Of a stretch of 32,473 nucleotides of DNA, positions 26,526-32,451 are shown in pieces (positions within the stretch are counted from its first letter, which is position 1; each line of letters begins with the position of its first letter). The translations under genes and the position numbers were made by a program. The stretch comes from a virus. Its lineage: Duplodnaviria; Heunggongvirae; Uroviricota; Caudoviricetes. The notes beneath the pieces were generated by a model that saw only the letters and a program-made list of their open reading frames with translations, was not told the DNA's origin and made no database searches. Location of the stretch: the IMG/VR virus record IMGVR_UViG_3300045988_153444, one strand, 5' to 3'.

Positions 26526-27142
26526 TGGCATTCAGAATGAGTGAACAATCACGTACCGTAAAAATTTATAACCTGCTGGCCGGAACTAATGAGTTTATTG
26601 GTGAAGGTGACGCATATATTCCATCTCATACAGGGCTGCCAGCTAATTCTACAGATATCGCCCCACCGGAAATTCCTGCTGGCTTTGTGGCAGTTTTTAA
26701 CAGTGAAAATGAATCGTGGAATATTGTTGAAGACCATCGTGGTAAAACGGTCTATGACGTGGCGTCGGGGGACGCATTGTTTATTTCTGAACTCGGACCG
26801 CTACCAGAGAATGTCACCTGGTTGTCGCCAGCAGGGGAGTATCAGAAGTGGGACGGCGTATCCTGGGTGAATGATGAGGAAGCAGAAAAACTGTTTCGGA
26901 TACGGGAAGCGGAAGAGAAAAAGGCAAGGTTGATCCAGGAAGCAACAGATAACATCGCAATTCTGCAGGATGCAGTTAATCTTGAAATAGCAACAAACGA
27001 GGAAAATTCACAACTGGATTCCTGGAGAAAATACAGAGTATTAGTGAGTAGAATTGACACCAGTACAGCTCCGGATATCGTATGGCCAGAGCTGATGAAT
27101 CAGGGTTATGTTCGGGAGGACGAGCAGATAACTTCAGACTGA
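26525..27142 (+). CDS. Tail fibre assembly protein (Tfa/chaperone)
   Basis: 205 aa immediately after the fibre gene; C-terminal …[23 protein letters not shown]… motif typical of Tfa proteins. Confidence 0.8.
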
Positions 27143-27669
27143 AATTTAGTGATGAATGTTGAATCATCAGGAATATCATGCAATACCAATGCATGAGCAC
27201 CTATTGTGACATTGTTTCCTATACGCACTTTGCCACCAAGAATGGTGGCATTACAACCAATGGTCACATTATGCCCTATAACAATATCCATATCATTAAA
27301 TTCCCCGCGAAGTCCAATAGTTACTCCGGGCTTAATTGAACAATTTTCACCGATTGTTACTTTGTGACCGATAACAACACTGTTGAGATAAGAAATATCA
27401 AAGCCTTTCCCTATATTTACAGTTAAAGGGACTGTTACATTATATTTATCAAGAATGAAACGTTCTATTTTTCCCGCAATCTTCCGACAGTATCCGCCTT
27501 TATCAAAAAGGTATTTGGCTATGCGCCACCAAAATAAATAACGAACCCTTCTATGTTTTATTGCGCGAACAATTGCCTTTCGCCAGGAGAAAGGACGCTC
27601 GCTACCGATTACTTCATAGTGAATACAGTCTTTAAGTTCATTAATATTCATATCTTTATTATTCAGCAT
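27106..27669 (-). CDS. Hexapeptide-repeat (left-handed beta-helix) acetyltransferase, WcaB/CysE-like
   Basis: Tandem hexapeptide repeats ([22 protein letters not shown]…[34 protein letters not shown]); convergent with and overlapping the tfa 3' end by 37 nt. Confidence 0.8.
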
Positions 27670-28083
27670 AAGATAATCATGTGACCAATTATTGTAATAA
27701 TTTTAATGGTATGTTTCTACTGGCTATCCAGCGTGTCTGATATCCAGTAACAAATCGTCAACACGGGTGCAATCAAATGGTGAGTGTTAAGACTGACCAC
27801 TTATTACCAGGTATGAGTGGCCAGCATTAAATCAGAACAGCCCTTTAACTGAACTGGCCGCGCTGTTAAGGGATGATGTCACCTTATCTTTGAAGCCGGA
27901 CAGCATATTGCTGAACGATGAGTTTACCGCAGGTTTCTGGCTGGGAATCATTGACTGGAGTTAGGCCAGTAGTATGATGCTCGCAAAACGAGATCCAATT
28001 TAGATCCTTTTACTGGTGGATTATCGTTCGATCAGTGAGAGACTTCGTGCATGACCGAAAGTGTTGTGGTAGAGTTCTCTTAA

Positions 28084-28100
28084 AACCACGTAACGTGGTT
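28084..28100. promoter_or_regulatory. Perfect 17-bp palindrome (AACCACGT-A-ACGTGGTT) next to a -10-like TATGAT; candidate operator of the repA promoter
   Basis: Palindrome read directly; by analogy to CopB/RepA2 operators in IncFII replicons (inference). Confidence 0.4.
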
Positions 28101-28139
28101 ATGATTGTGGGTGTCTGGTTGGAAAGTGACCAGATATGG

Positions 28140-28255
28140 AAACAAAAAGCCCGCAGATAAATCTGCGGGCTTCTTGCGACATCCACGGAAAACCAACAAC
28201 TAACCATGGGCGCCTCGACAACTCCCATTATACGTTGGTTTTCCGTGGACGCAAG
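28140..28255 (-). ncRNA. Candidate CopA/Inc-type antisense RNA against the repA leader
   Basis: A 16-bp perfect inverted repeat (28182-28197 / 28234-28249, 36-nt loop) and a GC hairpin (28149-28170) that, on the minus strand, is followed by UUUUUGUUU. Ends are not defined. Confidence 0.4.
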
Positions 28256-28264
28256 AGCGAACAT

Positions 28265-30575: not shown

Positions 30576-30923
30576 ATGTGGACGGTACTTTTTAGCCAGC
30601 GATTTGACGACTGGCTAAATGAGCAAGAAGACGCTCTTCAGGAAAAGGTTTTGGCTGATTTGAAAAAGCTACAGGTTTACGGACCTGAGTTACCCAGGCC
30701 ATATGCCGATACCGTAAAAGGTTCTCGGTACAAAAATATGAAAGAGCTTCGCGTTCAGTTTTCTGGCCGTCCGATAAGAGCCTTTTATGCGTTCGATCCG
30801 ATTCGCCGGGCCATCGTTCTTTGTGCAGGAGACAAAAGTAACGATAAACGGTTTTATGAAAAACTGGTGCGTATAGCTGAGGATGAGTTTGCAGCACATC
30901 TGAACACACTGGAGAGCAAGTAA
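30576..30923 (+). CDS. Type II toxin, RelE/ParE superfamily (HigB/Gp49-like killer protein)
   Basis: …LRVQFSGRPIRAFYAFDPIRRAIVLCAGDKSNDKRFYEKLVRIAEDEF… typical of Gp49/HigB-like toxins; toxin-first order with a downstream XRE HTH gene; ATG 30576 with AGGA SD. Confidence 0.8.
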   Translation: MWTVLFSQRFDDWLNEQEDALQEKVLADLKKLQVYGPELPRPYADTVKGSRYKNMKELRVQFSGRPIRAFYAFDPIRRAIVLCAGDKSNDKRFYEKLVRIAEDEFAAHLNTLESK

Positions 30924-31222
30924 TGAGAACATTAGATGAGGTGATTGCCAGCCGTTCACCTGAAAGCCAGGCGCGAATTAAAGAAATGGCAGATGAGATG
31001 ATTCTTGAGGTCGGCTTGCAGATGATGCGTGAAGAACTCCAGTTATCACAAAAACAGGTTGCTGAGGCGATGGGTATAAGCCAGCCAGCAGTAACAAAGC
31101 TGGAGCAGCGCGGAAATGATTTAAAGCTGGCGACATTAAAGCGTTACGTTGAAGCTATGGGAGGCAAATTAAGCCTGGATGTTGAGCTTCCCACAGGAAA
31201 ACGAATAGCGTTTAACATCTGA
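30923..31222 (+). CDS. XRE-family HTH antitoxin (HigA-like)
   Basis: HTH …LSQKQVAEAMGISQPAVTKLEQRGN…; start overlaps the toxin stop (TAATG). Confidence 0.8.
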   Translation: MRTLDEVIASRSPESQARIKEMADEMILEVGLQMMREELQLSQKQVAEAMGISQPAVTKLEQRGNDLKLATLKRYVEAMGGKLSLDVELPTGKRIAFNI

Positions 31223-31237
31223 CCAGAACGAATGATA

Positions 31238-31266
31238 AGCCCCTGTTGCAAAGGGGCTTTTTTGTG
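31238..31266 (+). terminator. Rho-independent terminator
   Basis: agcccct-gttgcaa-aggggct followed by ttttttgtgtt. Confidence 0.65.
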
Positions 31267-31289
31267 TTCATAGAATTATATAATTATAG

Positions 31290-31383
31290 ATTTATATAAA
31301 AAGCGCTTTACAGGTGGGAAAAAATTTCCTATGTTATACCCGAAACCGAGCGATACCCGCCCTGGTTAAACCGGAGAAATCTG
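31290..31383 (+). promoter_or_regulatory. Promoter/5'UTR module, copy 2 of the duplicated upstream region (copy 1 at 3-98)
   Basis: About 95% identical to 3-90 (3 substitutions and 1 indel by hand alignment); -35-like TTTACA. Confidence 0.5.
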
Positions 31384-32451
31384 ATGAATAAACAAGTAAT
31401 TATTTCTGACTGGATCAACAACCCTAACAGCCTGTTAAGCACTGATACTGGCTACCTATTACGCCATGTTAATGGTCGTATGGTCAAAAGCGATGAGCAC
31501 GAAACCTTTTTCTTTGTTGAAGACGATGGGCGTATCTATGAGGATGGTTACTCTTATGAAGCCCAAACTGGTTGTATCCCTGCGGAGCTGGTGGACGTAA
31601 CAGAAGATCTGCGCAAAGCATGGCTTGAACAGCAGCAGCGCGGAGATGATTACGTAAACACCTATCAGGAACGCCAGAACGCGCGTCTTGCCCGATATAT
31701 TGCTCGTGCAGAAAAAGCCAGAAAAGAAGGTGCGGTAGCGCATAAGCGAGCGCATGACCTGTTGGATGTGATCCCGTTAGGCCAGCCGATTTTAGTTGAC
31801 CATTATAGCGCGAAAGGCCATCGCCGCCGTTTGTCTAAAGCTGATGCGTTATTCAGAAAAGCGTTTGTTGAATGCGAAAGTAAAGCATCACACTACGAGA
31901 GCAAAGCCGCAGGTGTTGGTCGTAATGGAATTTCGTCTGATGATCCTGATGCGCTATTTAAGTTGCTTCGTAAGCTGCAAGGCTGCATGAAGTCACACGT
32001 CAAAATGAAGGCCGCAAATAAGGCCATTCGCAAATACAAAAAAGACCAAATACAGCAGCTTTCTGCATTAATCGATCTCAGGTTTACAGAAAGCGAAGCC
32101 AAAGAGTTACTGGCCGGAGATTTCTGTGGGCGCATCGGATTCCCTTCATACGCACTGAGCAACAATAACGCCGAAATCAAACGACTACAGAGCCGTATTA
32201 AGGAGCTTGAATCGGTCAAGTCTGTAACAGGAGCACAGCGCGAAGAATACGACGGCTTTTCTATGGAGATAGATCCAGAGGATAACCGCATCCTGTTTTA
32301 TTTCCCTGGCAAACCAGAGGCAAACATTCGTTCGCTGCTTAAATCACGCGCCTTTAAGTGGAGTCCAACCCGTAATGCATGGGTTCGCAAGATTACTCCA
32401 AACGCCCTGGCTGATGCCCGATATCTAAAAGAATCGCTATTGAAAGCCTGA
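31384..32451 (+). CDS. Hypothetical protein, 355 aa (possibly DUF3560-like; unverified)
   Basis: Long ORF driven by copy 2 of the duplicated promoter; charged helical middle; C-terminus …FKWSPTRNAWVRKITPNA… Family assignment is from memory only. Confidence 0.65.
   Translation: MNKQVIISDWINNPNSLLSTDTGYLLRHVNGRMVKSDEHETFFFVEDDGRIYEDGYSYEAQTGCIPAELVDVTEDLRKAWLEQQQRGDDYVNTYQERQNARLARYIARAEKARKEGAVAHKRAHDLLDVIPLGQPILVDHYSAKGHRRRLSKADALFRKAFVECESKASHYESKAAGVGRNGISSDDPDALFKLLRKLQGCMKSHVKMKAANKAIRKYKKDQIQQLSALIDLRFTESEAKELLAGDFCGRIGFPSYALSNNNAEIKRLQSRIKELESVKSVTGAQREEYDGFSMEIDPEDNRILFYFPGKPEANIRSLLKSRAFKWSPTRNAWVRKITPNALADARYLKESLLKA

Follow-up and report, generated by a model that had tools for sequence, protein, structure and literature searches.

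Plasmid replication and addiction genes lying close to a phage tail module raise the question of whether the DNA that carries them belongs to a phage that persists as a plasmid, to a prophage joined to a conventional plasmid, or to an ordinary integrated prophage. This question concerns a stretch of 32,473 nt (the window), which is one whole metagenome contig (ENA ERZ1744499 NODE_512; linear, cov_5.73). The protein-identity pattern of this contig is mosaic and compatible with a strain mixture. Comparisons with sequenced plasmids revealed that the window is collinear with circular 47–52 kb E. coli plasmids at 98–99.9% identity; p853EC2 (NZ_CP040921.1), for example, is collinear with positions 1–31387 and 31271–32473 in the same identity range. 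With a probability of about 0.9, the window derives from a member of a widespread family, namely temperate myoviruses of Escherichia and Salmonella maintained as ~48-kb circular plasmids. The features identified are collected in Table 1.

Table 1 Features of the window, in order of position
Feature	Position	Strand	Remark
Promoter-region repeat, copy 3 of three	3–103	+	Contig starts inside this copy
Three ParB_N-domain proteins 5' of the terminase (1973–2596; 2590–3969; 5262–5852)	1973–5852	+	
Lambda-type packaging and head: GpA terminase, DUF6148, lambda-family portal, ClpP-type protease, capsid E	6409–12601	+	
P2-type contractile tail and baseplate: sheath, FII tube, chaperone, tape measure, X, D, V, U, W, J, I	14111–23648	+	
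Tail fibre (948 aa) and tail-fibre assembly protein (205 aa, Caudo_TAP)	23679–27142	+	
Hexapeptide (left-handed beta-helix) acetyltransferase, CysE/WcaB-like	27106–27669	-	
Candidate repA promoter, TTGACT-16-TATGAT	27951–27978	+	
Candidate antisense control RNA (~117 nt): long hairpin and terminator	28136–28252	-	
repA, plasmid replication initiator (282 aa), IncFII/LM superfamily	28265–29113	+	
Candidate oriR: DnaA box, then AT-rich block	29255–29480	+	Conserved
Promoter-like site, TTGCCA-17-TACCAT, with palindrome GGAAAAGATTTCC (29712–29724) in the spacer	29702–29730	+	
Two small conserved genes: 95-aa HTH-like (PHROG 8351), 87-aa (PHROG 4595)	29757–30331	+	
Candidate toxin-antitoxin promoter, TTGAAA-17-TATAGT, with two overlapping ATAAnCnACAGGTTAT palindromes	30514–30542	+	Read from sequence
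Type II toxin-antitoxin pair, toxin first	30576–31222	+	
Terminator-like hairpin 3' of the antitoxin gene	31237–31259	+	
Promoter-region repeat at the junction	31269–31388	+	Left flank as relatives' copy 1, right flank as copy 2
DUF3560 protein (355 aa)	31384–32451	+	Early-region gene of the 48-kb family

Among 5,426 complete E. coli genomes, the repA-ori region was found in 71, including that of ATCC 25922, and each of the 82 places matched (82/82) was on a plasmid of 46.9–57.5 kb, with none on a chromosome. These locations, together with the near-identical relatives, support the extrachromosomal phage-plasmid that a reading of the letters without database searches (the sequence-only reading) had proposed. 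The same reading had seen no integrase, and this was confirmed by domain scans of the window ORFs and by the fully annotated circular relatives: no integrase domain was found in the ORFs scanned or in p853EC2, which contains only phage genes plus RepA, the toxin-antitoxin pair and ParA. No tRNA was found in the window. An ordinary integrated prophage, with its integrase and att sites beyond the contig, would agree with the linear and incomplete state of the contig, with one relative lying within the final ~52 kb of a contig of 5.17 Mb (L039) and with 3 chromosomal matches among the 245 obtained for the toxin-antitoxin/DUF3560 stretch. It is nevertheless extremely unlikely, given the complete lack of chromosomal repA-ori matches, the missing integrase and the closure of the relatives as ~48 kb circles.

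Independent records point to the same kind of element. Plasmid pDETEC34 (CP116126), which is 99.2% identical to the window, is listed as a 'phage-plasmid' (PMC10100714, Table S10). Three Yersinia phage records of 49 kb, vB_YpM_39/41/44 (OR545053-55), contain the RepA-toxin-antitoxin block at 99% and the structural genes at 98% identity; their phage status and their host, Y. pestis EV76-CN, are given by GenBank metadata, and no paper describing these phages was found. For the production of infectious virions, the three records are indirect evidence. A virion gene set, a replication initiator with a candidate origin and the lack of an integrase or att site occur together in the window, and the relatives show the circular replicon.

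Comparison of the 282-aa protein with PF02387 (IncFII_repA) confirmed homology (ORF 28136/28265–29113; E=1.2e-43, 150 bits, cut-off 22.9), and NCBIfam model NF040977 (RepA_IncFII_LM) was matched over model positions 1–266 with 231.7 bits (cut-off 70). The protein fell below the cut-offs of the narrow IncFII equivalog TIGR03474 (77.9 vs 446.9 bits) and of PRK13750 (81.2 against 478). The earlier designation as an IncFII-family RepA therefore holds at the level of the superfamily but not for IncFII in the narrow sense. The start at ATG 28265, giving 282 aa as first read, is preferred over the 325-aa RefSeq call, because diverged relatives do not share the upstream ATG (28136) and the annotation of the Salmonella homologue has the short form. 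This is useful for annotation, as the RefSeq repA start is placed 43 codons too early.

Only 155 PLSDB records matched the window RepA at E<=1e-20. The closest RepA of an ordinary plasmid found among the listed matches shares 36–37% identity with it, and no ordinary F-type plasmids are among the matches listed below the 80% identity break, while relatives with at least 80% identity occur only on elements of the ~48-kb phage-plasmid size and kind. Judged by these sequence matches, the RepA lineage appears essentially private to the ~48-kb phage-plasmid family. The gene order tail fibre, RepA, orf95, toxin-antitoxin is also found in a Salmonella plasmid and in a 47-kb IMG/VR contig, the RepA of which is 85% identical. 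This distribution bears on the second option left by the sequence-only reading, in which RepA and the toxin-antitoxin pair belong to a conventional plasmid and the phage genes to a prophage that was inserted into it or fused with it. Genes for RepA and for type II toxin-antitoxin systems are indeed typical of plasmids, and a few larger records (57.5 kb and 94 kb) are known; yet the complete circles of 47–50 kb have no transfer or mobilisation genes, the RepA-phage linkage persists in the diverged Salmonella and IMG/VR lineages, the RepA lineage is confined (at >=80%) to such elements, with the next plasmid RepA at ~37%, and the RepA-toxin-antitoxin block lies inside the 49-kb phage records. 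Since there is no other plasmid backbone, such a fusion does not fit and is highly unlikely.

As to the phage part of the element, the virion, packaging and tail gene set is full and every gene is intact. The families of a lambda-type head and a P2-type tail were confirmed as first read, and their combination with an IncFII-type replicon, which had been called unusual, proved to be widespread. A gpD-like decoration protein in the head module was only weakly matched, and the lysis genes are outside the contig and present in relatives. The predicted virions would combine a head of lambda type with a contractile tail of P2 type and would provide the route of spread. The ParB_N-domain proteins, of which the second (2590–3969) also carries a methyltransferase domain, were considered as a partition system and rejected, being of the phage ParB-like/methylase type.

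Contrary to the earlier description, repA is not immediately adjacent to the tail genes: the acetyltransferase gene (27106–27669, minus strand) and ~600 nt of non-coding DNA intervene. This gene, the ~100-nt end repeats and ~10 kb present in relatives had escaped the sequence-only reading. The product is probably an O-acetyltransferase, with surface polysaccharide as its presumed target. At the same site, other members of the family have genes for a Hin invertase and for alternative fibres.

The region upstream of repA contains a candidate antisense RNA, composed of a long hairpin with an invariant loop (28179–28252) and a Rho-independent terminator (28142–28177), which is complementary to the repA leader and reaches the repA start. 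The antisense-type hairpins noticed earlier were borne out by the minus-strand fold of 28136–28252 (-69.7 kcal/mol, z=-9.8) and by compensatory changes. Three compensatory pairs and the invariant loop were observed among only three diverged sequences (RepA lineages of 81–100% identity), and this covariation supports a putative antisense-RNA-type control element upstream of repA. An Rfam scan of the leader gave no family at the gathering score, and CopA was not even among the weak matches; neither a tap-like leader peptide nor copB or a CopB-like repressor was identified. The ~117-nt RNA probably throttles RepA synthesis, by a logic like that of IncFII CopA or IncB/I RNAI.

Downstream of repA, 142 nt past its stop codon, lies a perfect DnaA box, TTATCCACA (29255–29263). 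It is the single one in the window, in agreement with the first description, and is kept in diverged relatives as TTAT(C/T)CACA. Conservation extends over the box and ~220 nt downstream, while the upstream flank diverges; the AT-rich block is likewise conserved and comprises ATGCA-containing repeats and conserved GC hairpins. RepA would act at an origin located just 3' of its own gene.

Behind the origin, the 95-aa HTH-like protein is a candidate regulator. The toxin-antitoxin pair was recovered as predicted: the Gp49/HigB-like toxin (30576–30923) matched PF05973 (Gp49, E=5.7e-23) and PHROG 3445, annotated as 'toxin', and the antitoxin (30923–31222) matched HTH_3 (E=3.9e-10). The two genes overlap by 1 nt (TAATG). 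A toxin domain, an HTH antitoxin, toxin-first order and coupled genes suggest a HigBA-like type II system, and no solved homologue of these proteins was found by sequence. The pair would penalise plasmid loss, presumably by post-segregational killing.

A direct repeat of ~100 nt is present near both ends of the window (3–103 and 31288–31388), contrary to the earlier remark that no att-like repeat was visible. It was rejected as an att site: it is the sole long direct repeat, it is a promoter repeat and relatives have three copies per genome. Copy 3 contains a -35/-10 pair, the palindrome GGAAAAAATTTCC (30–42), an RBS and the ATG of an 89-aa gene. A single operator motif is dispersed over several promoters.

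One of these repeats marks a junction in the window. Here the antitoxin gene is joined directly to DUF3560, and ~10 kb present in all relatives is missing. The skipped segment encodes ParA (217 aa), a 218-aa CI-like HTH repressor, an ORF6N/pRha antirepressor, Ref and DUF1064; a partition system and a lysogeny repressor are absent from the window, both being located in this ~10 kb of the relatives. In complete members, the genes for the ParA partition ATPase, the CI-like repressor and the antirepressor lie ~5–8 kb further on. The junction falls exactly within the promoter repeat, of which copies 1 and 2 share 102 identical bases in relatives.

We judge a repeat-induced mis-join to be probable and a real deletion less likely. 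The coverage of the contig (cov_5.73), its start inside a repeat copy and its end 1.1 kb past the junction are on the side of the mis-join. The contig stops 22 nt past the DUF3560 gene, within a hairpin loop. The junction was absent from PLSDB, complete E. coli genomes, IMG/VR, JGI metagenomes and GTDB representatives, and an identical DUF3560 protein was in the canonical context in ten of ten long contexts. As an alternative, the contig may be a natural derivative that lost the ~10 kb when promoter-repeat copy 1 underwent homologous recombination with copy 2. The junction passes cleanly from copy 1 to copy 2, and the 102 nt that are exactly identical in relatives would suit RecA well as a substrate; moreover, exact identity between the two copies in the contig is limited to 44 bases, and an assembly graph of k=55 therefore need not branch between them. 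The source contig was also reported from two samples (two 'similar places' collapsed), which favours a deletion if these are independent assemblies. Against this, there is no 37–38 kb plasmid among the ~60 PLSDB and 71 complete-genome members, the junction is missing from all five collections, coverage is 5.7x, the contig runs from a repeat copy to a hairpin loop 1.1 kb past the junction, and the mosaic protein identity is compatible with a strain mixture. Two private variants in the junction repeat are explained by neither a mis-join nor a deletion. A natural deletion is therefore doubtful, and so is the 38-kb derivative that it implies, which would retain all virion genes along with RepA and the addiction module but not the partition/repressor/antirepressor block. 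Such an element would be a defective plasmid held by replication and addiction, or a repressor-less phage. If it exists, the promoter repeats would be both a co-regulated operator set and built-in break points, by which a temperate phage-plasmid turns into one of these forms.

Whatever the origin of the junction, the phage-plasmid family of the window is common and already catalogued, and the new content is small. Reading the sequence alone sufficed for correct recognition of a phage-plasmid, and an anonymous metagenome contig has been tied to a family that is carried by ~1.3% of the E. coli with complete genome sequences, the quality-control strain ATCC 25922 among them. Although common, the family has hardly been described: no studies of its copy control, its dispersed operator motif or its fibre, invertase and acetyltransferase cassettes were found in the literature. 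The results are relevant to the typing of plasmids and phages; current tools assign no type to these replicons.

Members of the same family are p853EC2, pDETEC34, the 48.5-kb plasmid of ATCC 25922 (NZ_CP009073.1), Salmonella Concord pAR-0407-1 and vB_YpM_39/41/44. These records share with the window 98–99.9% identity and the same order of virion genes, RepA, orf95/orf87 and toxin-antitoxin genes, and have the three promoter repeats, whereas the ~10 kb that separate the antitoxin gene from DUF3560 in them are missing from the window. The acetyltransferase cassette is found in the window and in about half of the plasmids listed, and the Hin invertase with alternative fibres in ATCC 25922 and the Yersinia phages.

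The replicon resembles that of the IncFII plasmids R1/R100 (copB-copA-tap-repA-oriR) in the RepA superfamily, in the structured leader with an antisense hairpin and terminator 5' of repA, and in the origin downstream of repA with the DnaA box first. In contrast, the homology is distant, and the window has no Rfam CopA match, tap-like peptide or copB. The nearest non-phage RepA, a full-length homologue of 36–37% identity, is encoded by 43.6-kb plasmids of Klebsiella, Enterobacter and Citrobacter, which have no phage genes; we take these 43,621-bp records to be pKPC_UVA01-like plasmids. P2-like phages (Peduovirus) and Xuanwuvirus P88 have contractile tails and baseplates of the same families; identity to P2-like/P88 phages is 91–98% over ~600 nt of the tail fibre, and 96 nt (27827–27922) is 96–99% identical to a P88-group tail gene. 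Those phages, unlike the window family, integrate and carry integrases, have heads that are not lambda-type and lack RepA.

Phage P1 is likewise a temperate myovirus maintained as a low-copy circular plasmid, with an initiator, a partition ATPase and an addiction module, and it has an invertible tail-fibre segment, as do many members of the window family. P1 has scattered C1 operators, which the dispersed operator motif recalls. It differs in size (~94–95 kb vs 48 kb), and the window family has a lambda-type head and packaging (GpA terminase) and an IncFII-superfamily RepA instead of the P1 iteron type. A comparison with INPHARED gave no DNA match to phages of the P1, SSU5 or N15 types. The named phage-plasmid groups (P1, N15, SSU5_pHCM2, pSLy3, pKpn, pMT1, pCAV and AB) range from 55 to 111 kb, and in the table of defined groups P1 (95 kb) is the sole myophage group, with no ~48-kb Escherichia myophage group (PMC11652158). 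By size, morphology and replicon, the window family is outside these named groups.

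The sequence-only reading of 27106-32451 had listed a plasmid replicon, a toxin-antitoxin pair, intact virion genes and no integrase, and all of these observations were confirmed by domain scans. The head genes are intact and of the lambda type (GpA terminase, lambda-family portal, ClpP-type protease and capsid E), the tail genes are intact and of the P2-type contractile kind (tube, tape measure, X, D, V, U, W, J, I, fibre and fibre-assembly), no integrase or recombinase domain was detected in the window ORFs scanned, and no tRNA was found in the window. RepA had also been described as directly abutting the tail genes; both are present, but an overlooked acetyltransferase gene separates them.

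Features of the region from the acetyltransferase gene to the DUF3560 gene (window coordinates)
Feature	Position	Strand	Remarks
Hexapeptide acetyltransferase gene	27106-27669	minus	Hexapep E=1.1e-12; PHROG 2154
Non-coding DNA	between acetyltransferase gene and repA		~600 nt
Candidate repA mRNA promoter	27951-27978		sigma-70-like
repA	28265-29113		282-aa start; followed by ~640 nt of non-coding DNA
Small gene	29757-30044		HTH-like product of 95 aa
Second small gene	30068-30331		
Gp49/HigB-like toxin gene	30576-30923		overlaps antitoxin gene by one base
HTH_3 antitoxin gene	30923-31222		
Terminator, then promoter region	between antitoxin gene and DUF3560 gene		promoter region of ~120 nt
DUF3560 gene	31384-32451		

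Window positions 1-31387 are collinear, at 98-99.9% identity, with the circular 49.5-kb p853EC2 of E. coli, which is set apart by an IS2 insertion. The focal region matched 192 PLSDB records, and the repA-ori stretch was found in 71 of 5,426 complete E. coli genomes (several ATCC 25922 assemblies among them), where all 82 places are plasmid-borne (plasmid sizes 46.9-57.5 kb) and none is chromosomal. Annotated circular relatives carry only phage genes together with RepA, the toxin-antitoxin pair, ParA and regulators, with no integrase or transfer genes. Three 49-kb genomes entered in GenBank as Yersinia phages, vB_YpM_39, vB_YpM_41 and vB_YpM_44 (Y. pestis EV76-CN as host), have structural genes ~98% identical to those of the window and possess a RepA-toxin-antitoxin block 99% identical to its own. 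Another family member, pDETEC34 (CP116126), is entered as a 'phage-plasmid' in Table S10 of PMC10100714. The order fibre, RepA, orf95, toxin-antitoxin is kept in a Salmonella Concord plasmid and in a 47-kb IMG/VR contig with an 85% identical RepA. The plasmid location, the circular relatives, the phage records, the pDETEC34 entry and the kept gene order therefore support the earlier proposal that the element is maintained as a phage-plasmid.

The element is a known and common one: proteins of the window have exact copies in ~1,800-2,250 blocks of the assembly collection, and the 99-aa protein, with 2,254 blocks, proved too common to discriminate. It falls outside the named phage-plasmid groups, all of which are 55-111 kb, and membership of the pSLy3 group, a ~110-kb SSU5-type siphophage group, was ruled out. 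Literature searches on the Yersinia phage names and on a description of the ATCC 25922 phage-plasmid returned nothing specific, and the family accessions had no match in the searched supplements of phage-plasmid papers. The Yersinia phage records seemed to start at the first base of the window, but this impression came from BLAST pieces that had been joined; the records begin near window position 4850. One family member (GCA_900448925.1 UGCC01000002.1, 5,116,460-5,120,759 of 5,168,194) sits in the final ~52 kb of a contig of chromosome size, and may be either integrated there or a plasmid that the assembler joined on. In a PLSDB comparison with window 30900-32473, 52 Yersinia plasmid records, typed mobilizable, matched part of the antitoxin/DUF3560 stretch.

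Every relative examined has ~10 kb between the antitoxin gene and the DUF3560 gene, whereas the window joins these flanks directly. In the relatives this segment encodes a 126-aa product, a small HTH protein, an ORF6N/pRha antirepressor, ParA with a small partner, a 218-aa CI-like HTH protein, Ref and DUF1064. The junction falls inside a promoter-region repeat that occurs at three sites in the relatives: after the toxin-antitoxin pair (copy 1), before the DUF3560 gene (copy 2) and before an 89-aa gene located at the window start (copy 3); copies 1 and 2 are identical to each other over 102 bases. The junction was absent from PLSDB, complete E. coli genomes, IMG/VR, JGI metagenomes and GTDB representatives, the search patterns for IMG/VR, JGI metagenomes and GTDB representatives having proved valid when run on the window. 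By exact-protein look-up, the window turned out to be an entire metagenome contig (ENA ERZ1744499 NODE_512_length_32473_cov_5.734037). Its start falls within repeat copy 3, its end lies in a hairpin loop 1.1 kb beyond the junction, and its proteins match one sub-lineage or another depending on the segment. At the low metagenome coverage of 5.7x, a mis-join at a repeat exceeding the k-mer in length is the likelier cause of the junction (probability roughly 0.6-0.65). A real recombinational deletion appears less likely; the source contig was reported from two samples, which would count in favour of a deletion if these are independent. Under either reading, mis-join or deletion, the window as given is without the partition and repressor genes of the family.

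Proteins encoded from 13821 to the toxin gene, with the exception of baseplate J, are identical to those of one sub-lineage (loci L026, L027 and L030 of the relatives), in which the antitoxin gene is followed by an additional 94-aa ORF. Exact matches to other sub-lineages (loci L001/L002 and L014) are seen instead for the antitoxin and for several genes of the first 13.8 kb. This mosaic of identities (13821-31222 and the first 13.8 kb) could reflect recombination or a strain-mixture consensus. Baseplate J (21953-23074) has 373 aa in the window and 374 aa in every relative seen, and its exact 373-aa product was not found by protein look-up, though the source contig is in the same collection.

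The slot between the fibre-assembly gene and repA (window 27106-27923) holds one of two cassettes in each family member: the acetyltransferase, as in the window, or a Hin invertase accompanied by alternative fibre and assembly genes in inverted orientation, the arrangement of ATCC 25922 and the Yersinia phages. The two types become homologous again at ~27923. The acetyltransferase resembles CysE, WcaB and EpsC, with scores below their cut-offs, and its simplest interpretation is as an enzyme of lysogenic conversion that would modify a surface polysaccharide. Just inside the slot, a 96-nt non-coding stretch (27827-27922) matches, at 96-99% identity, a portion of a 'tail protein' gene from phages of the Xuanwuvirus P88 group and is probably a remnant of cassette exchange. 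Within the tail-fibre gene, ~600 nt (24398-25000) are 91-98% identical to tail-fibre genes of P2-like phages (Peduovirus), which suggests that host-range determinants are exchanged with integrating phages. Near the C-terminus of the fibre (26175-26396) there are His-rich 'GAHTH' repeats, and the tape-measure gene contains diverged 120-nt periodic repeats (18618-18899). Ahead of the terminase, three ParB_N-domain proteins are encoded at 1973-5852, one of them fused to a methyltransferase domain; they match the N-terminal part of the PADLOC type II methyltransferase model and were rejected as the partition system.

Perfect GGAAA-N3-TTTCC palindromes occur three times in the window (30-42, 29712-29724 and 31317-31329), each in the spacer of a promoter-like site, and four times in p853EC2. 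The diverged Salmonella plasmid has four copies at the four positions of E. coli, with unchanged half-sites and different central three bases. The simplest reading of this set is that four dispersed promoters are under one repressor, for which the 95-aa HTH protein, encoded downstream of one of the sites, is a candidate. The promoter-region repeat itself is direct, ~100-125 nt long (window 3-103 and 31269-31388), and comprises TTTACA-17-TATGTT, an RBS and ATG; a 127-nt version is present three times in the Salmonella plasmid. On a quick reading, its two window copies could be taken for attL/attR. Two further palindromes that are nearly identical, ATAACCcacaGGTTAT and ATAAACtacaGGTTAT, lie across the toxin-antitoxin promoter (30514-30570) and are likely autoregulation operators.

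The assignment of RepA to IncFII held at the level of the superfamily, where the protein passed Pfam PF02387 (150 bits) and NCBIfam NF040977 RepA_IncFII_LM (231.7 bits, cut-off 70), but not for the narrow IncFII equivalog TIGR03474 (77.9 bits, cut-off 446.9). A tblastn search of PLSDB revealed 59 plasmids at ≥95% identity, three at 80-90% and the rest at ~37% or less, the ~37% matches being 43.6-kb plasmids of Klebsiella, Enterobacter and Citrobacter; this sharp break marks the initiator as an IncFII-superfamily lineage essentially private to the element. No RepA relative was found in GTDB representative genomes, and a PDB sequence search gave no solved homologue of RepA or the toxin. IMGVR_UViG_2824588292_000004, a rearranged or deleted relative, encodes a RepA 81% identical to that of the window ~1.2 kb downstream of a sheath-gene homologue. 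The RefSeq/PGAP model of the family RepA has 325 aa and begins at an ATG (28136) inside a terminator hairpin; the 282-aa start is preferred, because relatives whose RepA is 81-85% identical lack this ATG and the annotated Salmonella homologue is the short version.

On its minus strand, 28136-28252 forms a fold (-69.7 kcal/mol, z=-9.8) made up of a 20-bp hairpin that contains an internal stem-loop, then a 16-bp terminator and, after it, a U run. When three diverged lineages are compared, three pairs have changed on both sides and are still paired, and the apical ~30 nt of the hairpin are invariant. This anatomy is that of a counter-transcript pairing with the repA leader up to the start codon, i.e. 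a candidate antisense RNA. Rfam gave no gathering-level match in the leader, neither to CopA nor to another family, and its sub-threshold matches were at chance level and to terminator-containing families (e.g. Thr_leader and CsrC).

Established IncFII-type and type II toxin-antitoxin biology, applied to the homologies, plasmid location of relatives, conserved gene order, covarying RNA fold and conserved origin established here, allows a mechanism to be proposed. RepA and DnaA would initiate replication at the downstream origin, and the antisense RNA would curb RepA synthesis and thereby set copy number. The toxin-antitoxin pair may penalise plasmid loss or serve phage defence, ParA would partition the plasmid in complete copies, and the CI-like protein and antirepressor would govern the lysogeny switch. 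The window has a single perfect DnaA box (TTATCCACA), which lies 142 nt past the repA stop and is retained as TTAT(C/T)CACA in all diverged relatives, in which the ~220 nt 3' of the box are strongly conserved, unlike the stretch between repA and the box. This pattern of conservation puts a candidate origin on the 3' side of repA, which matches the arrangement in IncFII plasmids.
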